Positions 22,571 through 53,827 of a stretch of 64,000 bases of DNA are shown here, piece by piece. Position numbers and translations under genes: made by a program. This stretch comes from an uncultured Rickettsiales bacterium. GTDB taxonomy: Bacteria; Pseudomonadota; Alphaproteobacteria; Micavibrionales; GCA-2720935. How positions within the stretch are numbered: position 1 is the first letter of the stretch; every line of letters starts with the position of its first letter. The DNA lies in the NCBI GenBank assembly GCA_950054255.1, contig CATLOR010000001.1, positions 583,589-647,588 of the forward strand, given 5' to 3'. The notes beneath the pieces were generated by a model. The model had not been told where the DNA came from and ran no database searches. It worked only from the letters and a program-made list of their open reading frames with translations.

Positions 22571-23311
22571 ATGAAAAAAATTGGTGTTATCGGTGGCATG
22601 AGCTGTGAATCTTCAGCGGTTTACTACACATATGCAAATGAATTAATACGCGCGCGCTTGGGAGGATTGAACTCAGCGCGTTTTTTAATGTCTTCGGTTA
22701 ATTTTGCAGAAGTAAAAACAATGCAAATGAGCGGGGATTGGGATCTCTCAGGGCAGTTTCTTGCTAATGAAGCAAAATTATTAGAACAAGGTGGTGCGGA
22801 TATTGTGCTATTAGCAACAAATACAATGCATAAAGTCGCTGATGCAATTGAATCGGCGATCTCAGTTCCATTTCTTCATATCGCAGATGCGGTCGCTTTG
22901 GCACTTAAGAAACAAAATGTTGAGACGGTTGGTTTAACAGGGACACGTTATACAATGCTTGAAGATTTCTACAAAACACGCCTAGAACACAAACATGGGT
23001 TGAAAGTTATTATTCCTAGTGATGATAAAATTGATGCGATGAATGATATTATTTTTGATGAACTTTGTCAGGGGAAAGTCAAGGATGAGTCCCGTGCTCT
23101 TTATGTTGAGGCAATGCGCGGTATGCAAAAACAAGGAGCCGAAGCGATGATTTTGGGCTGTACAGAAATTGGTTTATTGCTTCAAGAAGGTGATTTTGAC
23201 TTGCCTTTGATTTGTTCTACAAAAGCACATATTGAAGCAGCGGTTGATTTTGCGTTATCTGATGAGGGCGATTTAGTAGAGATCGAGCCCGTATCGCGTA
23301 TAGCTCCCTAA
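22571..23311 (+). CDS. Aspartate/glutamate racemase family protein, YgeA-like (Thr/Cys active-site pair)
   Basis: It carries IGVIGGMS..S...Y. LATNTMH has Thr where two-Cys racemases have the first Cys, and ILGCTEIGLL supplies the second catalytic Cys. Confidence 0.85.
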   Translation: MKKIGVIGGMSCESSAVYYTYANELIRARLGGLNSARFLMSSVNFAEVKTMQMSGDWDLSGQFLANEAKLLEQGGADIVLLATNTMHKVADAIESAISVPFLHIADAVALALKKQNVETVGLTGTRYTMLEDFYKTRLEHKHGLKVIIPSDDKIDAMNDIIFDELCQGKVKDESRALYVEAMRGMQKQGAEAMILGCTEIGLLLQEGDFDLPLICSTKAHIEAAVDFALSDEGDLVEIEPVSRIAP

Positions 23312-25578: not shown

Positions 25579-25995
25579 TTATTTCAAATCATTTTTGTGA
25601 ATTTTTTCTCGTCCCAGTAAAAAAAGGGCGGCGCCACGTCCTGCTTTTAAAACAGGATAAGATAATTTGGAAATAGTTGGGGACTTAAACAAGGTCGCAC
25701 ACATTTTATTTAAGCATCCATTTTCAGAAGACATAAGGGCCAGACGATTTAAACATTCATCTCCGTGAAAATATTGGCCGTGATATTTTAAGATCATGCC
25801 GTCATCTAAATTATACCCAAGAGCAACGACTTCCTCATACTCAGCTGTTTTTTCACGTGCATCAATAAGGCGCACATCGCCAACGCTTTCTTTGAGATGT
25901 GTAAAGCGCATATAATTCTTACAAAAAGGGCAATCCCCATCATAGAGAATCCAATTCTCTTCAGTGTGATTTTGATTATTTGACGAAGATGTCAT
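25579..25995 (-). CDS. DCC-family thiol-disulfide oxidoreductase (DUF393-like)
   Basis: It has the N-terminal ILYDGDCPFC motif. The ATG at 25995 (preceded by AGGA) is preferred over the GTG at 26034. It overlaps the upstream gene stop by 20 nt. Confidence 0.75.
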   Translation of the reverse strand: MTSSSNNQNHTEENWILYDGDCPFCKNYMRFTHLKESVGDVRLIDAREKTAEYEEVVALGYNLDDGMILKYHGQYFHGDECLNRLALMSSENGCLNKMCATLFKSPTISKLSYPVLKAGRGAALFLLGREKIHKNDLK

Positions 25996-27712
25996 GTGAG
26001 TCCTTTGCGAGTACGTCCTTTGTAAATTCACCATCTTTAAAGCCTAAACATACGGCTTCAGTATTTAAGCGATAGCCTATAATATCATTGAAATCGAGTT
26101 TTTGGAACTCTGGATAGTGCCACCACCATGCATAAAAATGGTGTGGGTAGAGATAGAATTCAAGTTTTGAGGGCTGTTTTTCAAGTATGAAACGATGATG
26201 CCTTTGAAAAAAAGCATTTATTTTTTTATAGACACGTTCATCTTTTAAAATATTTTCTTCGTAATATTGAGAGGGATTGTAATTTTCTACCATATAGGGA
26301 TGGTCTTTTGCGTGTTCTTCGCTCATCCAAAGTTTGCAGTTATTTGCAGAGTGCATTCTTTCTGCTGAGCTTGTTGCCGCCATTGTTAAAGAATCAAAGT
26401 AAAAAGGACGGCGTCTTGTTTGTGTCCCCCATAATGTACCTTGCCCGATCAGACCTGAAGCTGACCAAAAATAAGAGAGCGGTAGAGGTACTATTTCATT
26501 GTTCTTTGTGATCGCTTCTATGTGATAACGATTAAATCCTTTTGTATCAAACCAGCCTAAGCGCGCGACAAAGAAAAGCATTGGCGCACATAAAACTACA
26601 AGGCATAGACCGTTTTTGAAATCGTTTGAAAGCTGTTTATTTCCAAAGGCTGTTAGCCCAATAACAATAGATGTATTTAATAAAATCCATTTCCAAAAAA
26701 AGATCCCAGTCGTTAAGAAGATGACAATATGCATGATGTCAAAGAAGAGCGTAATGAATAAGGTTGCTCTCACATTCCTTAGGATAAATAAAGACATGAG
26801 CTGGCTTATTAGGACGAGAATATTGAGAATAACATACCCTTTATCAAGGAATTGATATGTTAGTTTACTTAATGTTTCATTGAAACTAAGCGGGAAGAGC
26901 CCTAATTGATCATTTGTTAAGAGTAAATATTGGGTGTAATTCTCCGTTACCCAGTAAAAAGGATTTAAGCTATCAGGCGATAAAATGATTTTTTGCCAGC
27001 CAGAATAAAAATAATTAGACAGATGTACCGCGATCGCAAAGAAGGCAACATATTCCAGAAAATGTAATTTTTTATCAGAATACGATGTTAGTTCTTTTTC
27101 TATAGTATTGATATTTAAAGAGAATATGGTTTTTTTAGATTTTAAACGCTCACACAGACCGAGTATAATAAAAGCACAAATAAAAATTAGTCCCATTTCT
27201 GAAATATTGCCAAAATCTTCTAAGAAAAGGCGGTATCCAAAAACTTCACTTAGATCAGCTTTCTTCCAATTCATAAATAAAAGAGGGAAGCAAGCAAAGA
27301 TAGGGCGCCAAAATCCAACGATAAAACAAAGCAAAGTAGCTATAGGGATGAGATAAAGCTCTACTGCAATTTGAGCGCTGATTTCTTCGTACAGAAAAGG
27401 ACTGCGTGCAGTGATAATGTAAAAACTGGCCATGGCGCTTGATATATAGATCAAGGGAGGCATGATTTTAGGAAGATCCGATTTCTTTATCGAGAAAGCA
27501 ATATATCCTATGAGGGCGAGCACAAGACTTGCAAAAATGTGATTACTCTCACTCCAGCGATAATTTAAAAGGCAGGGTTTTAGAGCTGTAAAAAGAATCA
27601 AAAGACTAAGAATCGATAATAAAATCGTGTGGTTTTTATAAGAAAAGTCATCAACATATGTCGATTTCAAGTGTTTTGAGTAAGTTACAACAGGATCAAA
27701 CAGATGCAGCAT
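25976..27712 (-). CDS. Polytopic membrane protein of unknown function with a ~170-aa soluble C-terminal region
   Basis: It is 578 aa. Many hydrophobic segments fill the first ~400 aa, and I recognised no catalytic motif. It is translationally coupled to the DCC gene. Confidence 0.6.
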   Translation of the reverse strand: MLHLFDPVVTYSKHLKSTYVDDFSYKNHTILLSILSLLILFTALKPCLLNYRWSESNHIFASLVLALIGYIAFSIKKSDLPKIMPPLIYISSAMASFYIITARSPFLYEEISAQIAVELYLIPIATLLCFIVGFWRPIFACFPLLFMNWKKADLSEVFGYRLFLEDFGNISEMGLIFICAFIILGLCERLKSKKTIFSLNINTIEKELTSYSDKKLHFLEYVAFFAIAVHLSNYFYSGWQKIILSPDSLNPFYWVTENYTQYLLLTNDQLGLFPLSFNETLSKLTYQFLDKGYVILNILVLISQLMSLFILRNVRATLFITLFFDIMHIVIFLTTGIFFWKWILLNTSIVIGLTAFGNKQLSNDFKNGLCLVVLCAPMLFFVARLGWFDTKGFNRYHIEAITKNNEIVPLPLSYFWSASGLIGQGTLWGTQTRRRPFYFDSLTMAATSSAERMHSANNCKLWMSEEHAKDHPYMVENYNPSQYYEENILKDERVYKKINAFFQRHHRFILEKQPSKLEFYLYPHHFYAWWWHYPEFQKLDFNDIIGYRLNTEAVCLGFKDGEFTKDVLAKDSHDIFVK

Positions 27713-27861: not shown

Positions 27862-29310
27862 ATGATTAAAAATCTTAGAAAAAATGTAAGACTTCTTAGA
27901 AGTGGGAAGCGAAACAATAGACATTTGGGTGATCTAGATACACGTCTTTTGTCATTTGTTACGCCTGCAATGATTACAGTATTATTGATTGTCATCTATA
28001 TTGTTTCGACTTCTATTGATACATTAAGACAATATTACGAAACAAACATTGTTTTGAATGGCTTGATTATTGGTACATTGATCTTCACCATTGGTCTCGT
28101 CTTTAGTAATTTGATTGATCTATATAAGGCAGCACGCTTTTTAAAGTCTATTGATGAAAAAACGGTAGATGGCGATGCAAGCGATCAAGATATCGACCAG
28201 TTTCATGCGCAATTAAGAACACGCGGTAAGATCCTTAATATTAGTAATATGCATGATGCGATCGATCGTATTCGTAATTTCTCTGTAATTCAATTCACAG
28301 ATAATGATGCGCGTATTATTAAGTCTAAGCTTGGATTTAGAATGAACCTTGGTAGAGGCGGTGTTGGCTTCTTGGCGGGCCTTCTCGTTATGTTGGGGCT
28401 ACTTGGTACGTTCTTGGGTCTATTGAAAACGATTGATGCGGTGGGTGTCGCGATGGGCAGTATGTCCAATCTTGGTGCTGATGGCGGTATGGAAAGTTTC
28501 ATTGAATCGATTTCTGCTCCGTTACAAGGGATGGGTCTTGCGTTTAGTTCGTCGTTATTTGGTCTGTCAGGGTCTTTATTGTCTGGGTTTTTTAATTATC
28601 TCTCAAATGGTGCTCAAAACAGATTTATTGAGGATGCTGGACGTTGGATTGATAATAGAATTCCAAAGTTTGACGCTTCAAAAGTCCCGGATAAAGAAGT
28701 TAAAAAAGCGCCAAGCAAAGATGATATGCAATCATGGTTGTTGGGCTATGTTTATTTGGCGAATAAAACAAATAAAAGATTGGGGAGTTTGTTTGGTGCG
28801 TTGAGTGATTTAACGGATCAGACCAAAAAAGCATCTGAAAAAACGGACCAAGTTGTCGCTGTTGGGCAAGGCTCTAACGAGATTTTGGGTAAAATTGCTA
28901 CAGATTTAAGTGGACGTCAAGAAACGATGAAGAATATGGAAAGTCTGGTTGGTCAAGTCGGGCGTAATATTCAGGATATGACGCAAGTGAACATTGAGTC
29001 TAAATCCCTTCTATCGCAAATTGATACACGTTTTGAAAGTTTCCAGACGGACACGTCTAAAGAAAAAGCACAGTTGAAAGAGCTTTTAGGTCAGATTCAA
29101 ATGATGCGCAAAGTTGGGATCAAATTTGGAACAATACAAAAGACGCTAACCGATGAGCTTGGTGTTTTGGCTGTGGCTATGAAAGATCAATCAGGTGATC
29201 GTCATGCCGTTTTGAATGCGCTTAATGGTATTCAAAAAACACTAGAGAAAACAGCTCATGAACAAAAGAAAGAGAGTGCCCTTTCTAAAAAGAAAGGAAG
29301 TAGTCTTTAA
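27862..29310 (+). CDS. MotA/ExbB/TolQ-family proton-channel protein with a long C-terminal coiled-coil tail
   Basis: It is 482 aa. Two N-terminal TM segments, a ~80-aa loop and two further TM segments carry the family motifs GLLVMLGLLGTFLGLL and GMGLAFSSSLFGLSGSL. About 230 further residues are hydrophilic and heptad-like. Confidence 0.7.
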   Translation: MIKNLRKNVRLLRSGKRNNRHLGDLDTRLLSFVTPAMITVLLIVIYIVSTSIDTLRQYYETNIVLNGLIIGTLIFTIGLVFSNLIDLYKAARFLKSIDEKTVDGDASDQDIDQFHAQLRTRGKILNISNMHDAIDRIRNFSVIQFTDNDARIIKSKLGFRMNLGRGGVGFLAGLLVMLGLLGTFLGLLKTIDAVGVAMGSMSNLGADGGMESFIESISAPLQGMGLAFSSSLFGLSGSLLSGFFNYLSNGAQNRFIEDAGRWIDNRIPKFDASKVPDKEVKKAPSKDDMQSWLLGYVYLANKTNKRLGSLFGALSDLTDQTKKASEKTDQVVAVGQGSNEILGKIATDLSGRQETMKNMESLVGQVGRNIQDMTQVNIESKSLLSQIDTRFESFQTDTSKEKAQLKELLGQIQMMRKVGIKFGTIQKTLTDELGVLAVAMKDQSGDRHAVLNALNGIQKTLEKTAHEQKKESALSKKKGSSL

Positions 29311-30008
29311 TGTCGGGTGACAGCGAAAGTGACTTATCAGCGATTGCGTGGCCAGGGTTCGTGGATATTTTGTCTGCGGTTATTATCATGTTCGTCTTCT
29401 TCGTTTTGATTATTGCCGTTGTTCTTTATTTCCATGTTATTACATATAAGGCTAAGGTACAGACAGACGCGGTTAATCTTGCGATGGAGGCTGTCACTGA
29501 GTTAGAGATTGAAGATCCTAAGGCTGCTGGTGCGCCGCCTCCTACAGATGATCTCGTACAACAGGTTATCACTTTGCAGGTACGTAATGAGGCGTTAGAG
29601 CAAACAATCACAGATTTAAAAAAGTTGATGCAATCTCACGCGGAGTTCTCTGAATCTGAAAACCAGACATTTGAAGAGAATGTTGAAGAGGCACGTTTTG
29701 TGGTGTTTTTTGGGATCGATACGATTACTTTAACAGAAGATTCATTTAAAGCGTTGGAATCATTTGTCGAAAAGGTTTCGAATCGCTATAATCTTAGTGA
29801 ATCTCGAGCCGTTATTTATGGAGGTGTTGACGATAATGCCCGTCAGCCTACAGCTTCTAAGAAACTTGCTGTTGCTAGAATGCTGAATGCTAGAAACGTA
29901 TTATTGAAAACAGATCTACCAAAAGATGAAATTTCAGTGAAAATTGATGCTGGTCGAGAGATAGAAGAAGAGTTTAACTGGGTTGAGGTTGTAATAGAAC
30001 CTAAATAG
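29310..30008 (+). CDS. MotB-like protein with a single TM segment and a C-terminal OmpA-like peptidoglycan-binding domain
   Basis: It is 232 aa. WPGFVDILSAVIIMFVFFVLI places an Asp (D19, codon 29364-29366) at the cytoplasmic end of the TM segment, as in MotB/ExbD/TolR. The C-terminus ...GGVDDNARQPTASKKLAVARMLNARNVL is OmpA-like. The start overlaps the upstream stop by 1 nt (TAATG). Confidence 0.7.
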   Translation: MSGDSESDLSAIAWPGFVDILSAVIIMFVFFVLIIAVVLYFHVITYKAKVQTDAVNLAMEAVTELEIEDPKAAGAPPPTDDLVQQVITLQVRNEALEQTITDLKKLMQSHAEFSESENQTFEENVEEARFVVFFGIDTITLTEDSFKALESFVEKVSNRYNLSESRAVIYGGVDDNARQPTASKKLAVARMLNARNVLLKTDLPKDEISVKIDAGREIEEEFNWVEVVIEPK

Positions 30009-30017
30009 TTGAGTGGT

Positions 30018-31355
30018 ATGTTTTTTTTAAGACCAATTATAAATATAAGCATCATAGCGTGCGTTGCCTATATGTGCGCGTTTGGTGTTAATTCAGCTAA
30101 AGCTGAGCAAGCTGCAGGCTTTGAGTTGTCGCTTCCATCAGCAATTTTATTTGCATTGAATAATAACCCAGATGTTCAAATTTCTGAGGAAAGAGAAGAA
30201 CAAGGCTATTACTCAATTGAAGAGATCCGTGCTGATTTATATCCTCAAATTCAGATGGCAGCAGATATTGGTTTGCAATATAATGATCCTGCAACAGGGT
30301 TTACACCGTCTACTGGTAATATTAGAACATCAACAGAGGTGAGTTTTACAATTCAGCAGATTCTTTTTGATGGGTTTAGGACGTTAGAAAATATCAATCA
30401 ACAACACGCAACAAATAAATCGCTTTCTTATGAAACAGATGTTTTGACGCGTGATGTTATTTTAGAAGTGGTGACGGCCTATCTTAATATATTACAAGGG
30501 CAAAAAACACTGCGTGCTCAAGAGCGCTTAGTTGATCGTATCTCTGACTTGGTTTCAAAGATAGAGTTGCAATTCGAGGCTGGGGCGGCGAGTAAGACGG
30601 AGCTTGATTATGCATCGTCTCGTTTGCTTTTTGCGCAATCTCAATTAACAAATGTACGCTCAACTTTGAATGATTCTATTAGTGAGTTGGAGTCTCAGAC
30701 AGGTGCTTTGCCTGAATTTGTGACATTGGAACCAGAGTTTTTGTATGCTCAGAAAACGGAGCTTCAATCTTATTTGAACTATATGTTTAAGAATAATGCT
30801 GATTTCAAAGCGAACCAGTATAAAAAAAGAGCTTTAGAACATAAATATTATACAGAAGAAGCTGCGCGTTACCCGTCATTTAACGCACAAGTTGGTGGTA
30901 AGCAGACAACAGATGATGGCGGTGCTTCTGGTATGTATCGGGAATTTGAGGCGAGTGTTAAGATGAGCTACAAGATTTTTGATGGTCATTTACTGGATGC
31001 TACGCAAGATAAAATTATGTCGCAAATGCGTGAATTGGAATATACCGATTTAACTTTGGCAAAAGATTTGCGCCGTGATGCCGAACAGTTGTATAATCAA
31101 CTCGAATCAGTTGAAGATAATTTGCGTATTAATGCCGATGAGATTGCGACAAATGAGGTGCTGCAAGCACTGAATAGGAAAAATTTCGAATCAGGCTCTA
31201 TTGATATTATCGAATTGATCGAAGGAGAAGAGAGATTAGTTGATTCATTGTCTAGAAAATATGGCTTTGTGACAGATATTTATCGCAATACATATGAATT
31301 ATTACTTCTGGTCGGTGTATTAGATAAAACTTATTTTTGTAAAAGTTGTGAGTGA
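30018..31355 (+). CDS. TolC-family outer-membrane factor
   Basis: It is ~445 aa with a signal peptide. It has a two-fold internal repeat of long helical segments. N-terminal SLPSAILFALNNNPDV is typical of the start of OMF proteins. A TTG at 30009 directly abuts the upstream stop. Confidence 0.85.
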   Translation: MFFLRPIINISIIACVAYMCAFGVNSAKAEQAAGFELSLPSAILFALNNNPDVQISEEREEQGYYSIEEIRADLYPQIQMAADIGLQYNDPATGFTPSTGNIRTSTEVSFTIQQILFDGFRTLENINQQHATNKSLSYETDVLTRDVILEVVTAYLNILQGQKTLRAQERLVDRISDLVSKIELQFEAGAASKTELDYASSRLLFAQSQLTNVRSTLNDSISELESQTGALPEFVTLEPEFLYAQKTELQSYLNYMFKNNADFKANQYKKRALEHKYYTEEAARYPSFNAQVGGKQTTDDGGASGMYREFEASVKMSYKIFDGHLLDATQDKIMSQMRELEYTDLTLAKDLRRDAEQLYNQLESVEDNLRINADEIATNEVLQALNRKNFESGSIDIIELIEGEERLVDSLSRKYGFVTDIYRNTYELLLLVGVLDKTYFCKSCE

Positions 31356-31363
31356 TTTATTTC

Positions 31364-32281
31364 ATGAAGAAAAAGATAAACAAAAAGACATTATTTAATT
31401 GGGCTAAAAAGAGCGCGATTGTTTCTCTTTTTTCTGTGTTGATCTTATCTTCTTCAGTTTCTAGAGCATCTTGGAACCCTTTAGAAAAAGTGGAAGGGCA
31501 ATGCTTTAGTTACAAGTCTATAGATGCTGTTGGGGAGTTCTTTATTTATACAGAGGAAAAAGGGTTTAACTTTGTTTTAGCCTCTGAAACAGCATTAAAA
31601 TTAACGGGTGAAGACGACCTTGTTGCCTTCATTAAAAAAGACGGTTTCGCAGACTATTTTGATCTTATTCAATACGAAGATGATATTGTTAATTTTTCTG
31701 TTCCGTTAAGTTATTTTGAACAAAATGATTACCGCGATATTGCGAATGTGTTCTTTTATGTTGGTGATACGTACGAAAAATTAATTCCATTTGATATTCC
31801 TGCAGCAACATTTGCAGCACTTAATGCTTGTGAAGGGTTGCATGGTAAAGAAAAGTTCTTGGATAACCCTATGTTTTTTAACGAAAATGACGTAGCGGAA
31901 GCTGTGATTGAAGAGCAAAGATCTCCGTATGACTTTTCTAGGTTGCCTGCAAAAGAATTGCCTGACGCTGAATTAGCGCATGAGCAAACGTTAGAATATG
32001 TACAAACCCAAGAAAATGAAGGGCAAGATGTGGTTTTGGAAGACAAAGATGTTCCTTTCTTTGAAGAAGTACAGCGCCACATGCAAAAAAATATTTTTAT
32101 TCCAGTTGAATCAAGTATCACTGACGTTGACATAAGTTTAAACGAACAGCTTGAAATCATTGATTCTTTGACTGAAAAAATTAAACTTTTAGAGGTTGAA
32201 AAAGAGTTTCTACGTAAAAAGTTGGATTCTCAAGGTGATGAAATCATAAATGTAGTTGCCGATTCCTCAGAAAAGTCATAA
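31364..32281 (+). CDS. Exported protein of unknown function embedded in the T1SS locus
   Basis: It is ~305 aa with a basic N-terminus and a hydrophobic signal (AIVSLFSVLILSSSVSRA). The central region is acidic and the C-terminus is a coiled coil. I recognised no motifs. A GTG at 31352 would overlap the TolC-like stop. Confidence 0.55.
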   Translation: MKKKINKKTLFNWAKKSAIVSLFSVLILSSSVSRASWNPLEKVEGQCFSYKSIDAVGEFFIYTEEKGFNFVLASETALKLTGEDDLVAFIKKDGFADYFDLIQYEDDIVNFSVPLSYFEQNDYRDIANVFFYVGDTYEKLIPFDIPAATFAALNACEGLHGKEKFLDNPMFFNENDVAEAVIEEQRSPYDFSRLPAKELPDAELAHEQTLEYVQTQENEGQDVVLEDKDVPFFEEVQRHMQKNIFIPVESSITDVDISLNEQLEIIDSLTEKIKLLEVEKEFLRKKLDSQGDEIINVVADSSEKS

Positions 32282-32412: not shown

Positions 32413-35400
32413 ATGAAAGACATACAAATGCCACAATCTGGCACCGAAGAAATGGTGGTCATTCAACCTGGTGAACACATTAATATTGTCGGTGTTTCTT
32501 TTGATCAAGTAAGTGTTGATATTGTTGGTACGGACATTGTGATCTTTAACGAAGCTGCTGGATCTAAGCTTGTATTCCCAGGTATGGGGCTTCTGATCTT
32601 TGAGCAAAGCTTGGCGCCTGAAATTTCTTTTGGTGGTGAATCTGTTGGTGTTAATAAGTTTGTATCTCGCGTTGGTGAGGTTGGTAACTTAACAGTAAAA
32701 GACTTTATCGCTATTTCGAGTATTTTGCCTCAGAAATCAGATTCTGAAGAAGAAAATTTACAAAGCGCTGAAGTTGATGCTAAGTCTGAAAAACAGCAAG
32801 AAACAGTAGCATCTTCTAGTTCAGCTCCAACAGAAGCACCTGTTGAGTCTCAATCTCAATCTTCTCAGAAAAAAGTTGAAGAAGATAAAGCGAAAACGAA
32901 AACACCGCCAAATGCGGTTGATGAAGAAGGGACATCGGATGGTACTTTTGAAGCTGTTGCTCAGTCTGATGGTGCGCCGCCTGCTTCTACAAATCCAAAT
33001 ATCTCTCCAACATTAGGGGAGGCGCCTGAAGAGCCAGTAACATCTCTTTCTATTGACGCGAATTTATTACAGGTTGCTGCTACTCAAGAAACACTGACTG
33101 TTGGTGCGCAAGATGTGCGCTTTATCTATGGTGGTGGTGGTTCAGCGACATCTTTCTTCGATCCTGAAAACCAACATCAATTCTCAACAGAAGCTATTGA
33201 TGCTTCTAATTCGTTATTATCAACGAACATTATTGCTGATAACCCAGATTATTATTCTGATGTACAAATGGCGCGTGTTCTACAGATTGAACCGACAGCG
33301 CCAGATGCTTTCTTTGTCACTGAAATCACGATTACAGGATTGCCTGATGGCTATGGTATTGTGGGACAAGAAAGACAAGAAGATGGTAGTTTCTTGATCG
33401 AAAACCCTGATTATACAGGACAAGGTGATATAAGATTTATTATCACATACCCGATCCCCGCATATGAATCATTTGTCTTAGAATTTGATTTTCTGGCTGA
33501 ATTTGATACACAATTCGCTGCTGATAACGGTATTCGAGCAACATCGATTACAGAGCTTGAGTTTTCTTTTGATCAAAAAGTTGAGCAAAATGATGTTTCT
33601 GGCCCAGATGATTTGAATTATACAGATATTGAAGGTGATTTCGTTTGGGTACTTGCAAATGCGCCAAATGACAACCGTATTGTTGGTTCAGCTCAAGATG
33701 ATGATATCACAGGTAATAGTGCTTCTGACTTTGTAACAGCAGGGGCTGGAAATGATATTGTTCGTGGTGGTGCAGGTGATGATACATTAGATGGTGAGGC
33801 TGGGAATGACACCTTAATTGGCGGTACAGGTTCTGATAGCTATATCGGTGGTGATGGCGTCGATGTTGTTGATTTCACAGACATAACAGCTGTTATTGAA
33901 GTTGATTTAAGTGATTTAAATGTTGATAATTTCGCTGTTATTGATATTGACCGTTTGGGCCCTGCGCCAGAACAAGATTTTATTAGAGAAGTTGAAAATA
34001 TTGACTCAGGGTCAGGAAGTGACGTCTTAACAGGGAATGCTTCTGATAACTATTTCCAAGGGAATGATGGGAATGATATTTTAGCGGGTCTTGGCGGTAA
34101 TGATATTTTAGATGGAGGAACAGGATCTGATACAGCAGATTACTCGAGAGAGGCGCAAGCTGTAACAGTTGATATGTCTTTGACAGTTGATCTTGAGAAT
34201 AAATTTGCAGTGATCGATTCTGAGACAAACCTTGATACTCTGATTAGCATTGAAAATATCATTGGTACAGATTTCGATGACTCTATTACAACAGATGAAA
34301 ATGATAACATTATTCAAGCAGGCTTAGGTGATGACTATATTAATGCTGGTGCTGGTGATGATACAATTGATGGTGGCGCTGGTGTTGATACATTGGATTA
34401 CTCTACATCAACAACGTCTGTTTCTATTGATTTAGGTGGGCCTCAGAACGGGAATGGTTATATTTCAGCCTCATCTGGTGTTGATAACGATCTTGTTATT
34501 AATGTTGAAAATATTATAGGGTCTCTTTTAAATGACAATATTTCTGGTGATGCGAATGACAACTTTCTTCGTGGACTAGATGGGTCTGATACACTACGTG
34601 GCGCGGATGGCGATGACACGATTGATGGTGGTATCGGTAGTGATTTAATTAATGGTGACGCTGGTGATGATACGATTATTGCGAGTATTGGTAGCGATGT
34701 TATTGATGGTGGTACAGGGTCTGATACGGTTGATTATTATAATTTAGCGACAATTAATCCTGGCGCTGAAGCTATTACAGTTTTACTGGATAATACAAAT
34801 GCTGTGACTGTGACAGTGATTAATGGTGATGATGATCAAATTCGTGGTGTTGAAAATATTCGCGGTACAACCTTTAATGACAATATCACAGGAGATGATG
34901 CGAATAACCATCTGCGTGGGATGGAGGGTGATGATACACTTTCTGGTCGTTTGGGCGATGATATCTTAGATGGTGGTGCAGGTATTGATACAGCTGATTA
35001 TACATTAGCGACAAGTGGTATTGATGTTGATTTGGCACTAAACACAGTCTTTGCTGATGGAGATGGTGGTAATGATACAATTATTTCGATCGAAAACATT
35101 CGTGGTTCTTCTTTTGATGATGTGATTTTAGGAAGTGGTAGCGCAGAAACATTAAGTGGTTTTGCGGGTAATGACCGTATTGCTGGCCGTGGTGGTAATG
35201 ATATCATTGATGGTGGTTTAGGGAATGATACAGTTGATTACGCAACACAGGCAAATGCTGTTATTGTTGATTTAATTGCTGGTACAGGACTGGATACGGT
35301 TGATTCTTCTGTAGATACATTGATTAGTATTGAAAATGTGATTGGTTCTGCGTTTGATGACCAAATTGTTACGGATGTTAACTTTAACGATATTAGAGCA

Positions 35401-38400
35401 GGCACTGGTGATGATATCATGATCGGTTCTGATGGTAGTGACACTTATGATGGTGGCGCTGGTGATGACTTTATTGATTATCTATTCTCAGGAGCAACGT
35501 CTTTAAGCGTAACATTGGATAGCAGTAATAATGCAAGTGTAACTCTTGCCGGCCTAGGAACAGTTGATACAATCCGTAATGTTGAAGGTATTGGCGGTAC
35601 TTTCGGCAATGATACGATGATTGGTGATGCATTGGCTAACACGTTCTCTGGAGATGATGGTGACGATTTCTTCCAAGGTGGTTTGGGTGCAGATTTAATC
35701 TTGGGTGGAACAGGAAATGATACCTTTAGTTTAGATGATTTAAGTGGCACAGGTTTTGGTGTGAACATGAACCTTGTTCTTGGAACAGCGGAAGATACAT
35801 TCTCAGGATCTATTGATAATTTTGTTGGGATTGAAACATATATTTTAACAGATGCGGCAGATACAGTTATTTCGTCAGCATTTGCTGAAACAGTGCAAGC
35901 TGGGGCAGGTGATGATGTTATTAATGCAAGCGCTGGTACGGATACATTTGATGGTGGCACAGGCGTTGATACATTAAGTTATACAAACTTTGCAGCAGGT
36001 AATGCGATTACAGTTGATCTTGATGCTGGTAACGCGGTTAGTGTTACAGTAAGTGGCGGTAGCGTTGACACAATCAGTAACATTGAAAATGTGACAGGAT
36101 CACAAGGTGATGATGTTATTTCAGGGGATGGTTTGATTAACCATCTTATTGGTGGTCAAGGGAATGACATTCTTGATGGTGAAGCCAATGATGACATCTT
36201 AGAAGGTGGATTTGGTAATGACACCCTAATTGGTGGTCTTGGTGATGATACCCTTATTGGTGGTACGGGATCGGATACTGCTGATTACTCTGGTGCAGCT
36301 GGAAATATCATTGTTGATATGACTGGTAATATTGCCTCAGCTGATGGTGATGGCGGCGTTGATATCTTTGATAGTATTGAAAATGTGATTGGTACAGACT
36401 TTAATGATACAATCGCTGGTAATGCGTTTGCTAACACATTAACCGGGGGCGCTGGTGACGATACGATTTCTGGTGGTTCTGGCTCGGATACATTAGATGG
36501 TGGCGCTGGCACAGGCGACAGACTGCGTTTTGATGAACTTGTTGATGGCTTTATTAACATTAATATTGGCACGGGTTCTGCGACTTATAGTGCGGATAGT
36601 AGTGTTGACAGTTTCATGAATTTTGAATTTTATGAATTAACAGCACAAAATGATATCGTAACTGGTTCAACGGGTATTGATGATGTTCAGACTTTAGCGG
36701 GTGATGATACAATCAACGCAAGTGCTGGTGATGATATTTATGATGGTGGTGATGGATCAGATACAATTGATTATTCTGCATCTGGTGCGACATCAATCAG
36801 TGTAGCTTTAGCAGGTACAAGCACGACAACAGTGACTGTGAGTGGTTTGGCTGGTGATGATACAATTAGAAATATTGAAAACGTAACAGGTTCAACTGGT
36901 AATGATACAATTACTGGGGATTCAAATGTGAATAGAATTTTAGGTCAAGCGGGTGATGATATCATTATCGGTGGTGCGGGCTCAGATATTCTTGATGGTG
37001 GTGCTGGTACAGATACGCTTCGTTTCGATGATCTTGTTGGTGCGGGTATCCAAATTGACTTTGATGTTAATCGTGCGACCTTCTTTGGGGATAGTTCTCA
37101 AGACGTATTCTCTAATTTTGAAATTTTTTACATGTCTAACCAAGATGATATTATCAATAGTTTCACAGGCGCTGAAACTGTCTTTGGCTTGGGTGGTGAT
37201 GATACCTTTAATGCAGATTCAGGTGCGGATACCTTTGATGGTGGCACAGGTACAGATACCGTTGATTATTCTGGTATGGCGACAGCCAACTTTATTACGG
37301 TTACTTTAAACGGGAATGCAGATGCGACTGTTACAATTAATGGTGATGCGTCTGTCGATACAATTCGTGATATTGAAAATGTGATTGGGACAGCCGGTGC
37401 TGATACGATCACAGGGGACGCCGAAGGAAATGATCTTTCAGGTCTAAGCGGTGCCGACATTCTTGATGGTGGTGATGGCGATGACTATTTACGTGGTGGA
37501 AATGATAATGATACTTTAATTGGTGGCGCGGGTTCTGATACGCTTGATGGTGGATTAGGAACAGATACGGCTGATTATTCTGGTGCGGCTGCTGGTATTA
37601 ACGCAAACCTTGGTGCGAATTCAGTATCAAATGATGGTGATGGCGGTGGAGATAACCTCATTAGCATTGAAAATATCCGTGGATCAAACTTTGCCGATAA
37701 CGTATTCGGTAATGCTTTTGTGAACTCTATCTTTGGTTTAGACGGAAATGACATTTTGCGTGGTGGTGAAGGTTCTGACTTCCTTGATGGTGGTGATGGA
37801 ACAGATACGCTTCGTTTCGATGACCTATTGAACAGCGGTATTACATTAGATTTACAAGCAGGCACAGCGAATTATAGTTTTGATAACAGTACTGATACAT
37901 TCACAAACTTTGAAAACTATGTAACAACAGCTCTTGATGATGTGATTTCAGGGTCAGCAGGTGTTGACATTGTTAATGCCGTTAGTGGACAAGATTTATT
38001 TAATGCAAGTGCTGGTAATGACCAATTAGATGGTGGTTTAGGTACGGATGAGGTTGATTATTCTGGTCTATCTGGCGTATCTATTACATTAACGCTTGAT
38101 ACATCAAATTACGCAACAGTGACAGTTACTGGCGGTGATGATGACCAAATCAGAAATATTGAAAACGTAACTGGGTCAACAGGAGCTGATGACATCACAG
38201 GCGATAGTTTTGTGAATGTGATCGATGGTGATGCTGGTGATGATACACTGCGTGGTCGCGGTGGTAATGACGTTTTAGATGGTGGCGCTGGCACAGATAC
38301 GGCCGATTACTCATTGGCTGCTGGTGCTGTAAATGTTGATTTATCAATTAACCGTGCTATTAGTGATGGTGATGGATCAACCGATACGCTGAACAATATT

Positions 38401-41400
38401 GAAAACGTGTCTGGATCTGTTGTTGATGATACATTAGCTGGGGATGCTGGAAATAACGTTCTATTTGGTAATACAGGGAATGATACACTGCGTGGCCGTG
38501 GTGGTGATGATACACTTGATGGTGGCGTGGGTACAGATGAAGCTGATTATTCATTAGCTGCAGCAGGTGTTACAATTGATCTCTTAAATGGGCAAACAAC
38601 CGATGATGGTGATGGTGGCGTTGATACGCTTGTGAATATTGAAGATCTGATCGGGTCTGGCTTTGATGATGATATTACTGGTGATGATGGCGCGAACACA
38701 ATTACTGGTGGTGCTGGTAATGATATTCTTCGCGGTGAAGGTGGAGATGACTTCCTTGCTGGTGGTAGTGGTACAGATACAATTGATTACCGTGTTGCAT
38801 CAGGGTCTGTGAGTGTTGATTTAACAAGCTCACAAACAAGTAATGATGGTGATGGTGGCGTTGATACATTAAGTAGTATCGAGAACGTGATTGGTTCTGC
38901 TGGGAATGACTTGATAATTGGTAACGCATTAGGAAACGTTTTAAACGGCGATGCGGGCAATGATGATCTTCGTGGCCGTGGTGGTGATGATACACTTGAT
39001 GGTGACGGTGGTATCGATACAGCAAACTACGTTCTTGCAACAAATGCAGTCACAGTCGACTTATCGGTTGGTCAAGCAACCGATGATGGTGATGGTGGCG
39101 TTGATACATTAATTGAAATTGAAAACGTAACAGGCTCTATCAATAATGATACTCTTACAGGGGATTCAGGCATTAACACGTTAAATGGTGGCGACGGTGA
39201 TGATCTGCTCGAAGGTCTTGGCGGCGATGACACAATTATTGGTGGTATTGGTACAGATACAGTAACATATGCGAATTCTACAGCAGGTGTGACTGTTGAC
39301 CTCTTTAACTCAACAACAACAAATGATGGTTTTGGCGGCGTTGATACACTTGTCACAATTGAAAATATTACAGGTTCTGGTAACGCGGATAGTTTGACAG
39401 GGGATAATTCAGCGAACTTAATTTCTGGTGGTGCTGGTAATGATACAATCCGTGGTCGTGGTGGTAATGATGATCTTCGCGGTGGCGCTGGTACAGATAC
39501 AGTTGATTATTCACTCGCATCTTCTGGTGTTGTTGTCGATTTAGCGATTAATAACACATCAAATGATGGTGATGGCGGTATTGATACATTATCTGGTTTT
39601 GAAAATATCCAAGGATCGAACTTTGCCGATGTGTTAAATGGTGATGCTGCTAATAATACGATTAATGGTGGTGTTGATAATGATACTTTATACGGTGCTG
39701 GTGGTAATGATACGATTATTGGTGGCGACGGTGATGATACAGTTAGTTATGATCGGGCAGCCGCAGCGGTAACGGTTGACTTAGCTCTTGGTTTAGCAGT
39801 CAATGATGGTGATGGTGGTATTGATACATTGACAACCATCGAAAATGTGCTTGGTTCTGACTTCGATGATACCTTAACAGGGGATAACTTAGCGAACACA
39901 TTATCTGGTGGCGCGGGCGTTGATACCCTTGATGGTGGCGACGGTGATGACTTGCTTCAAGGTGATGCTGGGAATGATAATTTCATTGCGAGTGCTGGTG
40001 CGGATACGTTTGATGGTGGTACAGGCTCTGATACATTAGATTATCAAAACTTAGCAGGAGCAAACTTTATTACAGTTTCTTTACTTGGGTCTTCTGATGC
40101 AACAGTCACAGTTGATGGAGGCTCAGCAGACACAGTTCGTAATGTTGAAAATATTACAGCCACAGCTGGTGCAGATACATTAATTGGTGATGGGAATGCT
40201 AATACATTCTTTGGCTTAGGCGGTGCGGACCGTTTAATTGGTGGTGGCGGTACAGATACGCTTGATGGTGGCGCTGGTACGGATGTTGTTGATTATTCAA
40301 CCTCTATCGCAGGTGTTAATGTAGATTTAAGCACAAATCAGGCTACAGATGATGGTCTTGGCGCAACAGATAATATCTTTAATGTTGAAAATATTAGAGG
40401 TTCTATCTATGGCGATACATTAAAAGGTGACGGCGCAACAAATACAGTTGATGGTGACCAAGGGAATGACACATTCTTATATTCTGGTGGGAATGATATC
40501 TTAGATGGTGGCGCAGATATTGATACTGTTGACTATTCTCAAGATGGTTCTGTGACATCTATCTCTGTTACTTTAACAAATTCAACACTTGCAACAGTTA
40601 CAGTTAATGGTGGCGACAATGACCAAGTTCGCAATATTGAAAACATCACAGCAACAAGCGGTAGTGATAGTATCTTTGGGGATACAGCTGATAACACAAT
40701 TACTTTATTGGGCGGAAATGACTTTGCTCGTGGTGGTCTAGGTTCAGATACCTTTGATGGTGGTGCTGGTTACGATATTTTATACTTTGATGATATAGCG
40801 GGTGGTGGAATTACACTTGATCTAGGTGCTGCGACAGCAACCTTTGATGGGGATGCATCAACAGATACATTTACTGGTTTTGAAGAATATTGGGGAAGTA
40901 ACCAAGGTGACCTCTTAACAGGATCTGCGAATGCTGACCTTATCTATGGTAATGGCGGCGATGATATTTTCTATGGTACAGCTGGTACAGATACGTTAGA
41001 TGGTAACGGTGGTTCGGATACAATTAACTTTGCCTCTTATGCGGCAGCGAATTTCATTACTGTGACATTAAATGGTGGAACAGCGGCAAATGTTGTTGTT
41101 AATGGCAGTGATACAGACAGTATCGTTAATATTGAAAACGTGACAGGGTCACAAGGTGATGACGTTATCACTGGGGACTCAGGTATTAACACGCTAAGCG
41201 GTGGCTTAGGAGATGATACGCTTGATGGCGGTTTAGGAAATGACTTCATCAATGGTGATGCTGGCGCGGATATGATTTTAGGAAATGATGGCGCGGATAA
41301 CATTGATGGTGGTGCGGGTGTCGATACACTTGACTATTCTGTGCACGGAAATGCAAATGCGATTACAGTAACGTTAAATGACTCTGGTAATGCAGGTGTT

Positions 41401-44400
41401 CAAATTGATGGCGCAGAAGATGATATTATTCGTAACATTGAAAATATTATTGGTACAGCTGGCGCGGACGTTATTATTGGTGATACACAGCAAAACTTAC
41501 TTGAAGGTCGTGATGGCAATGACTTTTTAACAGGGGGAACTGGTGCGGATACCCTTGATGGTGGTGATGGTATTGATACAGCTGATTATTCTGTATTTGG
41601 CTCTACAGGTGCTATTTCTGTGACATTGAATGGATCAAATGATGTTACAGTGAATGTCACTGGGGATGATAATGATACGATCAGAAATATCGAAAATGTG
41701 ATCGGTACTTTGAATAATGATACAATCATTGGTGATAGCCTTGATAACGAGTTAACAGGTAATGACGGCGATGATACATTAATTGGTAATGGTGGTATGG
41801 ATACACTCGATGGTGGTGATGGTAGTGATACGGTCGATTACTCATTAGATGTAACAGCAACGGCAATTTCTGTAATCTTAAATGCGGATGCGACAGCAAC
41901 AGTGACTGTTACAGGCTCACCAGATGTGGACCTTATTCGTAATATTGAAAATATTATAGCGACAGCTGGAAATGATACAATAGAAGGTGACTTCTTAGCT
42001 AATAACCTACGCGGTTTAGCTGGAGATGATACATTTAATAATATTGGTGATGGTGATGTTATCGATGGTGGTGCGGATACAGATACTATTTACAATGGCC
42101 TTTTAGGGAATGTAACCATTGATATGAGTACTATTTCAATGGGTTACGCCACAGCAACAAATGGTACAGAGAGCTATCAATTCATTAATGTTGAAAACTT
42201 CCGCTCATTTGAGAACCTAAATGCGACCTATGATATTACTGGGGATGCAAATGATAATATTATTACGACCTCAAATGATAGAAATAATAACGATACTGTC
42301 CGTGGTGGTGGCGGTAATGATACGATTTCTACCTATGAAGGTAATGATACGGTTTATGGGGATGCCGGGGATGATATTATCAACACAGGCAATGGAAATG
42401 ATACTGTATATGGTGGTGATGGTAATGACACAATTACCGGGAATGGTACAATGTACGGTGACGCTGGTGATGATGTCATTAATTTTTCTGGAACGGCGTA
42501 TGGTGGTGATGGCGATGACACGATTACTGGTACAAATAGTACAAGTAACGATACGATCTACGGTGGGGCAGGAAATGATACATTAAGCGGTGGTAATTAT
42601 AGCGATACCATTTATGGTGGGGATGATAATGATACTATTTATGGTGGTAATCATACAGATACTCTTTATGGGGATGCTGGCGATGATATTATCTATGGTG
42701 GTAATGAGCGAGATAGATTATATGGTGGTGATGGTGATGACCAACTGTTTGGACAAAATAATAACGACCGTTTCTATTTAAGTAATGGAACAGACCATAT
42801 TGATGGTGGTAGTCAAGGTGGTAATAATATTGGTGATGCGAACATTTTAAGTAATGGTAGCTATGGTGACTATATTATGGGTAGTGACTTGTCTGATGTG
42901 ACAGGTGCGACCCGTATTACAGTTGATTTACAAGCTGGTACATTCTCTACAGATGCAGGAACATCAGGGACATTAACAAATATCGAAAGTGTGATCGGTA
43001 ATACTGGAAATGATGTTGTTACAGATAATGGTTCAAATAATGATATTGAACTGGGTGCTGGCGACGATATTATTTATGCTGACGGCGGTGGAAACGATTA
43101 TTTCCGCGGTGATGCTGGGAGTGATACCCTTGATTATACAGGTGAAGCCGGCAATATCAGTGTGAATTTAAACACTGTTGCGGCGGGCGCGGTAACTGTA
43201 AGCGTTGATAGTGGCGCGGAAGCAGATATAATTTATGGTTTCGAGCGCTTTATCGGTGGTGAAGGGAATGATTATATTATTGCCCATGCATCGGATACGA
43301 CATATTTAGCTGGTGGTGCTGGGAATGATTATCTTTTAGGGGATGACGGCGTTCTTGTTGAGGCTGGCGATGGAAATGACAGATTAGGATCTCGTGCTTC
43401 AGGTGGTGCAACATTAGATGGTGGCGCTGGGAATGACACAGTTGAATATTCTGGTACAAATGGTCAATCATCTGGTACAGCGGGTATTTCTGTTACGCTT
43501 CAAGAGACTGGAGATACAACAGTTGATTATCTAGACGGATCAGCGACAGATGAAACAATTAGAAATATTGAAAACATCACAGGGAGTGACTATGCTGACC
43601 AAATTACAGGTAACTCTGTAACAAATATCTTAATTGGTGGTGCAGGTAACGATACATTTGGTGCTTCTGATGGGAATGATACTTATAATGGTGGTTCTGG
43701 TTCAGATACATTGGATTACTCTGGTTTCTTAACAGCAACAGCGATTACAGTGGCTCTGTTAGATTCTGGAACAGCAACAATTACCGTAACAGGTGTTGGT
43801 AACCAATTCGCAGATGGCATTGAGAATGTTACATCAACTGCTGGCGCAGATGATATTACAGGAAACGCATCAGCAAATACAATTAACACTGGCGCAGGGA
43901 ATGATATCGTACGTGTATCATCAGGCGCGGATGTTTTAAATGGTGGCGCGGATACAGATACATTCCGTGCAGATGCTCTTGCAACAGGAAATGGTATTTT
44001 AAACCTGACAGCTGGCACATTTACAAATGCTTCTGAGGGTGTAACAACATTCTTAAGTAATTTTGAAATCTATTATACAACGAACCAAGCAGATACAATT
44101 ACACTTCATACAACAGATGAAGAAGTCTATGCTCTTAATGGTGATGATACGATTATTGCATCAACAGGCGCTGACTTGATTGATGGTGGCGCTGGTACAG
44201 ATACATTGTCTTATAACTCAATATCAGGTCTAACAGGTATTACAGTAACACTGGATGGCTCGAATGATGCAACAGTGACAGTGAATGGTAATAGTGATCA
44301 AACAATCCGTAATATTGAGCATTTAACAGGATCTCAAGGGAATGATAATATTACAGGTGATGCCGGTAACAACATTTTAATTGGTGATATTGGTAATGAT

Positions 44401-52558: not shown

Positions 52559-53827
52559 ATGTTTGAAACCATAGATAAAATGTGGTCGTACAGGCCTGTA
52601 TTATTACTTGTGATTTGTTTGTTTTTTTCTTTCATTTCATGGGCATCATTAACAGAAATTGATCAACAAGTGCGTGGGACTGGGCGTGTTATCCCCTCTG
52701 GTAAAGCGCGTATGATTCAACATCTTGAGGGTGGTATTATTGATAAAATTCTCATCAAAGAAGGTCAAAAAATAGAAGCTGATCAGCCTATGTTTATTAT
52801 TAGTAATGAACGTGCAGAAAATGATTTGGACGAACTGGATATTACGCTTGCCTCATATACGATCAAGCAAACACGCTTGAAAGCGGAATTAAATAAACAA
52901 AATACGATTGATTTCGACCCTGAATCGATTGAAAAATATCCATCAATTGTTGTTTCAGAAAAACAATTATTCGAGGCGCGTCGTTCAAGCTTCAAAGAAA
53001 AAATCAAAAGTATGGAAGAAAAATTCCGTCAAAAATCCTTAAAGCTTGTTGATTTAAATACACGCGTGAAAAACTTAAAAGAAGAATTGGAAATTGCAAA
53101 AGAGCAATTAGAGATTAAGCGGCGTTTATTTGAGGCAGGTGCTATGTCGCGTAGCCGTTTTCTTGATGCACAAAGTGAGGTCAAAGATTTCAATACGCGT
53201 ATTTCTAGAGTTGACAAAGAAATACCTGTAGTCATTGCTGAGCGTGCTGAGGCGGATAATTTATTGGAAGAATATCGCCAAGCTTATTATTCAGAAGTCT
53301 TAGATCAACTTCAAGAAGTGCAGTTTGATATTAAAAAGGTGAGCGAACGTATAGCCTCTCTCCAAGACCAGGTGACAAGAACATCTGTTAAATCTCCTAT
53401 TAAAGGAATTGTGAATAAACTTCATATTAATACAATTGGCGGAGTTGTTCAGCCAGGAGCTGTGATGGCTGAGGTTATTCCAGTTGATGAAACACTTATT
53501 GTTGAAGGACAAATTTCAACGGAAGATCGTGGTAAGGTATGGCCATCACTTCCTGTAACGGTTAAGATTACGGCTTATGATTACACAATTTATGGTGGGC
53601 TAGACGGGACATTGACGAATGTGAGTGCTGATAGTTTTCTTGATAAGCAGAATAATGAATATTACCAAGTGTTTGTCACATTAGAAGGACAAAGCCTTGG
53701 CCCTGATAAACCCGTCTACCCAGGGATGATCGCAGAGATTAATATTAAAACAGGTAAAATCTCTGTCTTAAGCTCAATCCTAAGACCTTTTTGGGAAATT
53801 AAAGATAACGCTTTAAGAGAAAAATAA
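52559..53827 (+). CDS. Type I secretion membrane fusion protein (HlyD family)
   Basis: It is 422 aa with an N-terminal TM segment. VRGTGRVIPSGKARMIQHLEGGII is the lipoyl/beta-barrel start. A long coiled-coil hairpin follows, and the C-terminal GM.AEINIKTGK is typical of HlyD. Confidence 0.93.
   Translation: MFETIDKMWSYRPVLLLVICLFFSFISWASLTEIDQQVRGTGRVIPSGKARMIQHLEGGIIDKILIKEGQKIEADQPMFIISNERAENDLDELDITLASYTIKQTRLKAELNKQNTIDFDPESIEKYPSIVVSEKQLFEARRSSFKEKIKSMEEKFRQKSLKLVDLNTRVKNLKEELEIAKEQLEIKRRLFEAGAMSRSRFLDAQSEVKDFNTRISRVDKEIPVVIAERAEADNLLEEYRQAYYSEVLDQLQEVQFDIKKVSERIASLQDQVTRTSVKSPIKGIVNKLHINTIGGVVQPGAVMAEVIPVDETLIVEGQISTEDRGKVWPSLPVTVKITAYDYTIYGGLDGTLTNVSADSFLDKQNNEYYQVFVTLEGQSLGPDKPVYPGMIAEINIKTGKISVLSSILRPFWEIKDNALREK

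Follow-up and report, generated by a model that had tools for sequence, protein, structure and literature searches.

A stretch of 64,000 nucleotides from an uncultured Rickettsiales bacterium (contig CATLOR010000001.1; the whole stretch is called the window here, and positions are counted from its first letter) encodes two adjacent membrane proteins, a large subunit A and a small subunit B, which are distant homologues of SiiB and SiiA of Salmonella and add a new and remote member to the SiiAB kind. The A/B family is so far unannotated in public records. The pair is embedded in a widely distributed six-gene module for the secretion of giant calcium-binding (RTX) proteins that occurs in several phyla, and it is probably a proton-driven 5:2 motor that controls the retention or release of a 5961-aa RTX protein encoded at the same locus. 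An earlier note, made from the letters of this DNA alone, described a stator-like pair whose function was genuinely ambiguous. The first part of that description agrees with a monomer model of A, whose predicted fold matches the A subunit of a 5:2 motor in Foldseek. The function is not ambiguous, because the pair is homologous to SiiB/SiiA, a direct precedent that the note had missed, and is linked to genes of a type I secretion system (T1SS) at nearly all of 69 related loci.

The Salmonella precedent is well described. SiiA is a MotB-like protein of 210 aa with an essential D13 and an R162-dependent peptidoglycan-binding domain, SiiB is a MotA-like protein of 462 aa, and together they form a proton channel beside the SiiCDF secretion system, which exports the 595-kDa adhesin SiiE (10.1101/641415). 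SiiB binds the ATP-binding cassette (ABC) transporter SiiF, and deletion of siiAB leaves secretion intact and abolishes adhesion and invasion (PMC12607715). Retention of SiiE on the surface increases with the proton-motive force and decreases with carbonyl cyanide m-chlorophenylhydrazone (CCCP) (PMC6272769). SiiAB has been studied in one organism only, and how it uses the proton-motive force to control a T1SS is a question that has stood since 2014. The device is now seen beyond Salmonella.

Homology, fold and conserved residues of the two subunits

The Salmonella proteins were reached through a published primer, which gave the start of siiA on a Salmonella contig (L083) from which siiA, siiB, siiC and siiD were read; bit scores from hidden Markov models (HMMs) carry a PDB-size normalisation. 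The core of A aligns with SiiB at an hhalign probability of 97.3% (E 1.7e-11), and BLASTP matches the two at E 4e-11 with 37% identity across the third and fourth transmembrane helices (TM3-TM4, SiiB 131-200). The A-core HMM gives SiiB 48.5 bits, as against 12.7 bits for E. coli ZorA. For the B family and SiiA, the hhalign probability is 94.5% (E 7.9e-8), the BLASTP match (E 1e-7) covers the WP[GS]FVD motif and the membrane helix, and SiiA receives 41.6 bits from the family HMM.

The gene for A (27862-29310, + strand) encodes 482 aa, and its product is classed as a SiiB/ZorA-like A subunit of a 5:2 motor from the open reading frame (ORF), AlphaFold2, Foldseek, hhalign and PADLOC. Hydropathy gives four hydrophobic segments, at residues 30-48, 63-81, 170-192 and approximately 223-247, of which the first two, TM1 and TM2 (27949-28104, + strand), score 2.5 and 2.4. 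The N-terminus carries nine K/R against two D/E and is therefore placed in the cytoplasm, while the loop at residues 193-222 is free of K/R. This pattern fits a topology with the N-terminus inside, four helices, and the last ~234 residues in the cytoplasm. Between TM2 and TM3 lies a conserved, predicted cytoplasmic loop (residues 88-168; 28123-28365, + strand) that ends in the near-invariant TDNDARxIKSKxGxR, and within it the family alignment has D147, A150, I153, K154, K156, G158 and R160 as invariant or almost invariant positions.

The presumed ion pathway is formed by TM3 (LVMLGLLGTFLGLL), the periplasmic loop and TM4 (GMGLAFSSSLFGLSGSL), which together occupy 28369-28602 on the + strand and contain invariant family columns. 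The motifs LVMLGLLGTFLGLL and GLAFSSSLFGLSGSLL, already picked out in the earlier note as family motifs, are present in A and are the most conserved stretches of the family. In 34 homologues, G179, L180, G182, T183, F184, G186, L187 and L188 of TM3 and A227, F228, S229, S231, L232, F233, G234 and L235 of TM4 are invariant. T183 and S231 align with T147 and S184 of E. coli ZorA in an alignment that is statistically weak; in ZorA these two residues are the ion-selectivity filter according to the Zorya structure paper (PMC11946911). Taken over its whole length, the A family is very conserved in a core at residues ~55-300 and diverges in the tail, in both sequence and length.

The AlphaFold2 model of A has a mean predicted local distance difference test (pLDDT) of 72.5, with values of 80-90 in the core. 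All of its top 50 Foldseek matches in the PDB are ZorA, ExbB or TolQ chains (best probability 1.0, E 2e-3 to 1e-2). On this model, A has the A-subunit fold of the 5:2 ion-driven motor superfamily. Sequence searches are far less telling. Direct searches of the PDB with A and with B gave no useful match, the A core profile found there only ZorA, at a non-significant E of 0.5, and the full-length A profile found only coiled-coil and chemoreceptor proteins, all through the tail. These tail matches are regarded as compositional and not as a sign of a chemoreceptor domain.

The tail itself comprises residues 249-482 (28606-29307, + strand) and is predicted to be a cytoplasmic coiled coil from its helix prediction and heptad periodicity. 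AlphaFold2 places three long helices in it, at residues 286-372, 379-441 and 447-479. The power of the 3.5-residue hydrophobic periodicity is 4.2, compared with 0.40 +/- 0.25 (maximum 1.5) in 500 shuffles, a difference of ~15 standard deviations, and the hydrophilic, heptad-like extension of ~230 residues after TM4 that the earlier note had described is thus borne out. The base of the tail is conserved (E257, R261, W262, D264, W292, L293, G295) and the distal part is variable; across 54 loci the tails of the A family measure 190-396 residues.

The small subunit B (29310-30008, + strand) is a SiiA/MotB/ZorB-like protein of 232 aa by its ORF, hhalign and the family HMM. Its predicted proton-accepting Asp, D19 (codon GAT, 29364-29366, + strand), lies in the motif WPGFVDILS and stands in WPGFVDILSAVII, just before the single membrane helix. 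The same Asp had been proposed beforehand as the channel residue, and it proves to be invariant in 69 of 69 family members, inside the near-invariant WPGFVDILS. It aligns with the essential D13 of SiiA (WPGFVDILS against WPSFVDTFS).

Beyond the membrane helix, B continues through a linker that is predicted to be helical and coiled-coil into a predicted OmpA-like periplasmic domain (residues ~118-232; 29661-30005, + strand). The AlphaFold2 model of B has a mean pLDDT of 83, rising above 92 for residues 120-232, and Foldseek matches the C-terminal domain only to OmpA-like peptidoglycan-binding domains, including those of OmpA, MotB, Pal and ZorB. The best fit is the periplasmic domain of SiiA (6qvp), with a target-normalised TM-score of 0.85 and a root mean square deviation of 2.2 Å; other OmpA-like structures give TM-scores of 0.45-0.68, and full-length ZorB (8qyd_F) is also matched. 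The OmpA-like end that had been read from the sequence is therefore assigned confidently by AlphaFold2 and Foldseek, and falls below the threshold by sequence: the Pfam OmpA match has E 6e-4 and 20.5 bits for a cut-off of 27.2, and NCBIfam offers weak matches to PRK09039 'peptidoglycan-binding protein' models. Sequence profiles of B, whether full-length or restricted to the C-terminal domain, did not find the SiiA periplasmic domain, which was found by fold comparison alone. Within the domain, R190, N193, R195 and N196 are invariant or nearly so, and R190 falls, in the alignment, on the Arg that binds diaminopimelate in the OmpA domain of A. baumannii.

A six-gene secretion module and its hosts

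More than 1300 relatives of A were found in databases; the named ones are called 'hypothetical', and none has a Pfam domain. An exhaustive search with the A profile gave 2466 clusters (50% identity) at E <=1e-3, of which ~90 have the full core and score above 200 bits, so that these ~90 within ~2500 related clusters offer a sizeable family of natural variants. Eighty genomic loci were recovered, L001-L069 representing the family with a T1SS and L070-L080 the most distant relatives. Their hosts fall mainly into three groups, namely alphaproteobacterial metagenome assemblies (many of them Micavibrio, Rickettsiales and Holosporales), Pseudobdellovibrionaceae and Bdellovibrionales, and Gammaproteobacteria (Granulosicoccus, including one isolate, Granulosicoccus sp. 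3-233 at locus L064, Pseudomonadales and Halioglobus).

At L001-L069 the order A, B, TolC is maintained wherever the contig permits, and the TolC-like gene, found at 65 related loci, lies directly downstream of B whenever it is present. Within 10 kb of the pair there are giant RTX ORFs at 61 loci, ABC transporters at 49 and adaptors at 46, and nearly all of the 69 loci have at least one of these three genes within that distance. When the neighbouring ORFs are clustered, only A, B, TolC, RTX, ABC and adaptor are widely conserved, the next family being present at 11 loci. The Legionella lssXYZABD system was considered, as the ABC transporter in the window is of the LssB type, and no Legionella locus is among the 80. 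The secretion cluster GMV0107-0111 of Micavibrio aeruginosavorus ARL-13 may be a further carrier of the pair.

In the window, the module belongs to seven closely packed genes on the + strand at 27862-53827, as given by the ORF calls. A and B share one base, the last A of the TAA stop of A (29308-29310) being the first base of the ATG of B (TAATG), an overlap that suggests translational coupling of the two. B is followed by the TolC-like outer-membrane channel (30009-31355, + strand; Pfam OEP E 4e-45; TIGR01844 E 5e-44, below the model cut-off). The presumed substrate is the 5961-aa RTX-repeat protein with HemolysinCabind repeats (32413-50298, + strand). Downstream of it lie a T1SS ABC transporter with a C39-like N-terminal domain (50441-52552, + strand; Peptidase_C39, ABC_membrane and ABC_tran), whose match to TIGR03375 has E 2e-199 and 664 bits for a cut-off of 693, and a HlyD-family periplasmic adaptor (52559-53827, + strand; TIGR01843 E 2e-104, above the cut-off), which has a full-length identity of 20% to SiiD (E 1.5e-20). 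The seventh gene (31352-32281, + strand), between the TolC-like and RTX genes, encodes a lineage-specific 309-aa protein with a signal-peptide-like N-terminus; it has no Pfam or NCBIfam match, and of the related loci compared, L001, the closest, alone yielded a homologue. Promoter and terminator scans gave background levels.

The substrate RTX proteins at the loci range from 1000 to more than 5900 aa. An extreme N-terminus of the form ..MPxxGE..V.PGD.I.L.G[IV].. is common to the giant substrates of 39 related loci; in the window it corresponds to residues 1-75 of the RTX protein (32413-32640). This element has no Pfam or NCBIfam match, and it may be a plug or a retention element matched to the A/B motor.

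Several features of the module are particular to a few lineages. In L043 (11939-15166), L016, L018 and L047, the TolC homologue downstream of B is far larger than usual, with 680-1075 aa, and in L043 the OEP domain begins at residue 663, after ~660 residues that have no Pfam match. Granulosicoccus loci have 7TMR-DISM/GGDEF diguanylate cyclases and HDOD proteins as neighbours, and autotransporter beta-domain proteins occur at ten alphaproteobacterial loci; such lineage-specific neighbours lie at L052 15790-17682, L030 10447-11313, L005 1011-3239 and related loci. The GGDEF/HDOD and autotransporter neighbours hint, from gene context, at cyclic-di-GMP control of the module and at a role in adhesion.

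The most distant loci, L070-L080, encode a shorter A-like protein of 350-430 aa that has no linked type I secretion genes, together with a PRK09039-type partner that carries WPG[FY]VD[IV]LS wherever the downstream gene is readable. By these three features, L070-L080 are a sister family. Stand-alone pairs are seen at L071, L073, L074, L077, L079 and L080; their hosts, in the Alphaproteobacteria and elsewhere, include Ferrovibrio, Rhodomicrobium and Thiotrichaceae.

Divergent from A, on the - strand, is a gene for a 578-aa protein with many membrane helices (25976-27712), which has no Pfam match and is not among the families widely conserved at related loci. Further downstream, a DotM homologue (56102-57277; Pfam DotM_C, E 2.4e-49) adjoins a 905-aa DotL/TraD-like type IV coupling protein (57828-60545), from which the organism can be taken to carry a Dot/Icm-type (type IVB) secretion system; such a system fits a host- or prey-associated lifestyle. 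Two paralogues of the Asp/Glu racemase family lie at 22571-23311 (Pfam Asp_Glu_race annotation) and 61775-62518 (judged from the translation only). The window matches the ENA metagenome scaffold ACIN21-1_SAMN05421699_METAG-scaffold_1 (865 kb), and 43 contigs in NCBI, JGI, Logan and ENA data carry an identical B protein, which means that sampling has picked up this uncultured organism repeatedly.

Proposed motor function and alternative explanations

The proposed mechanism takes its stoichiometry, proton conduction, tail contact and retention-or-release outcome from SiiAB, ZorAB and MotAB. A ring of A subunits, probably five, would surround a dimer of B that is anchored to the peptidoglycan through its OmpA-like domain. 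D19 of B would be offered to a proton path lined by T183 and S229-S231 in TM3 and TM4 of A, and proton flow would cause the A ring to move around B. The A tails would form a cytoplasmic coiled-coil shaft which, with the conserved loop, would relay the movement or the conformational state to the ABC/adaptor/TolC machine. By analogy with SiiAB, the motor would then decide between two fates of the giant RTX protein, display on the surface while still held in the TolC/adaptor/ABC conduit, or release. The earlier note had left the tail to contact either the T1SS or something else; the secretion side of this choice is supported by the SiiAB homology and the gene linkage, and the contact itself would follow by analogy. 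The family places testable constraints on such a mechanism: the invariant Asp, the invariant polar residues of TM3 and TM4, the conserved loop and tail base, the variable tail length, the obligatory adjacency to a TolC-like gene, and the conserved substrate N-terminus.

A number of observations weigh against this reading. The identity to SiiAB is 35-37%, and the similarity extends over the membrane helices and the first parts of the tail and of the periplasmic domain, and no further; at sequence level, SiiA has no match to the C-terminal domain of B. The gene order is inverted, with the large subunit before the small one here and the small before the large in Salmonella. The canonical Asp of the OmpA peptidoglycan pair is not kept in B, where the family consensus is KNP, and with this partner replaced, B is a putative peptidoglycan binder. 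At its N-terminus B is acidic, contrary to the positive-inside rule, although that of SiiA is likewise acidic. Finally, SiiE is an adhesin of bacterial Ig domains and the substrate here is an RTX-repeat protein, in the first 500 residues of which Pfam and NCBIfam reveal no LapA- or BapA-type retention module. Since the RTX protein is not of the Ig type and showed no known retention module in its N-terminus, the retention role is extrapolated.

The main rival explanation is that the motor is required for secretion itself, to thread, unfold or pull the ~600-kDa substrate or to open the TolC-like channel, and would have no part in choosing between retention and release. The homology, the fold and the invariant Asp apply to it equally, and three features of the module speak for it: the strict A-B-TolC adjacency, which suggests coupling to the outer-membrane component, the exceptional size of the substrates (1000 to >5900 aa), and the large extra regions of several of the TolC homologues. 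Many giant RTX adhesins, LapA for one, are nevertheless secreted without a MotA/MotB-like pair. In the only studied homologue, moreover, deletion of siiA/siiB leaves SiiE secretion running (PMC12607715), and we therefore regard a motor for secretion as unlikely.

Less probable still is a passive anchor, in which A and B would merely fix the secretion system to the peptidoglycan or set its position there and perform no ion-driven work. B does have an OmpA-like domain, as predicted from its model, and lone OmpA-like proteins with no MotA-like partner are known in other RTX-adhesin operons, such as that of Shewanella bpfA (PMC3672883). A role as scaffold leaves unexplained why D19, T183 and S229-S231 are absolutely conserved, and SiiAB conducts protons in a D13-dependent manner (10.1101/641415). 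Because the Asp is invariant, a purely structural anchor seems quite improbable.

The long tail, a hallmark of ZorA (PMC11946911), had also raised the possibility of a Zorya-type anti-phage sensor, in which a ZorA/ZorB-like pair would sense perturbation of the envelope and the tail would signal to cytoplasmic effectors. The resemblance to ZorA is real at the level of sequence. PADLOC ZorA3/ZorA1 profiles match A at E ~1e-13 and are the best library matches for A, all 34 of the 34 family members tested match PADLOC ZorA profiles (best E 4e-20), and 14 of 39 B homologues match ZorB1 profiles (best E 1e-7). Judged by profiles, ZorA is closer to the pair than are MotA, ExbB and TolQ. Against membership in Zorya, A scores 19.6 bits with the NCBIfam ZorA model, whose cut-off is 100, the B of the window has no ZorB match in PADLOC, and the A-core HMM favours SiiB far over E. 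coli ZorA. No ZorC/D/E/F/G-like gene is conserved around the pair at the 69 loci, and its flanking genes in the window, the 578-aa membrane protein and the TolC-like gene, are not Zorya-like. Since SiiB also matches ZorA profiles, such matches do not indicate Zorya, and the pair is instead homologous to SiiB/SiiA and linked to a T1SS. Zorya identity was rejected on the missing effector genes, the sub-threshold scores and the closer relation to SiiB, and a sensor of this type is very improbable here. A caution for annotation follows: a ZorA-profile match in a gene that adjoins type I secretion genes does not mark a defence system.

A flagellar stator of the MotAB/PomAB type is ruled out by the gene context and the tail, no flagellar genes being among the conserved neighbours of the pair at the 69 loci.

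Comparison with known ion-driven motors

Among the 5:2 motors, the flagellar stators share with the pair the four-helix A subunit, in which a cytoplasmic loop joins TM2 to TM3 (MotA/PomA), and the Asp just before the membrane helix, in a [YF][AV]D[FI][ML][TS]A pattern, with an OmpA-like anchor domain (MotB/PomB). They differ in that A has a long C-terminal tail, and no MotA chain is among the 50 best structural matches. ExbB and TolQ superpose on the membrane core of A with a Foldseek probability of 1.0, and ExbBD and TolQR work by the same principle, the conversion of proton-motive force into work at the cell envelope. Unlike ExbBD/TolQR, the module has no gene for a TonB- or TolA-like transducer, B has an OmpA-like domain of its own, and A is long-tailed.

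In the sister pairs, the B-like partner carries the same WPG[FY]VD[IV]LS and the A-like core is 30-35% identical. Apart from their lack of T1SS linkage, these pairs differ in size, A being shorter (350-430 aa) and B longer (340-383 aa).

The closest known relatives are SiiA and SiiB. SiiB (462 aa) and A (482 aa) both consist of a membrane core and a coiled-coil tail of ~250 residues; SiiA and B both run from the WPxFVD Asp motif through a single membrane helix and a linker to a compact OmpA-like domain of ~100 residues; and both pairs are encoded directly upstream of a TolC-like gene (siiC in Salmonella) in a T1SS whose substrate exceeds 5500 aa. Alongside these likenesses, the linker of SiiA is disordered, whereas that of B is predicted to be helical and coiled-coil. 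SiiB, which weakly matches ZorA profiles, passes the Pfam MotA_ExbB threshold, whereas A does not: A has no match to this family (PF01618) at E up to 0.1, and 3 of 18 members of its own family match it weakly (best E 1.3e-4). Compared with SiiAB, the A family has the strongly conserved loop motif TDNDARxIKSKxGxR, its tails vary from 190 to 396 residues, some of the partner TolC proteins are greatly enlarged, and the substrates share their extreme N-terminus. The hosts, too, differ from Salmonella, being uncultured Alphaproteobacteria, Bdellovibrionota and marine Gammaproteobacteria, among them epibiotic predators and lineages of intracellular type.

ZorA and ZorB share with the pair the 5:2-motor fold and an A subunit that extends into a long alpha-helical tail in the cytoplasm. 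ZorB is a peptidoglycan-binding B subunit, to which the modelled OmpA-like domain of B would correspond, and ZorA profiles are the strongest library matches of A. Even the tails behave alike, that of ZorA (PMC11946911) and that of A both giving chemoreceptor-like coiled-coil matches. The differences lie in the conserved partners, which are type I secretion genes here and not ZorC/D/E/F/G, in the length of the tail, which is ~500 residues in E. coli ZorA and 190-396 here, and in an extra N-terminal membrane helix of A, the ZorA1 profile aligning from residue 72.

The family forms a sequence bridge between SiiB and ZorA. It is conceivable, though in our view doubtful, that the tailed 5:2 motors, SiiB, ZorA and the present family, are one lineage, with the cytoplasmic coiled-coil tail as its output shaft. 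If so, the phage sensor of Zorya and the accessory motor of secretion would be two uses of one device. In the present family the rotating tail would gate the ABC transporter mechanically, and the gating would hold or release megadalton RTX adhesins with which epibiotic predators (Micavibrio, Bdellovibrionota) and host-associated bacteria grip their prey or host.

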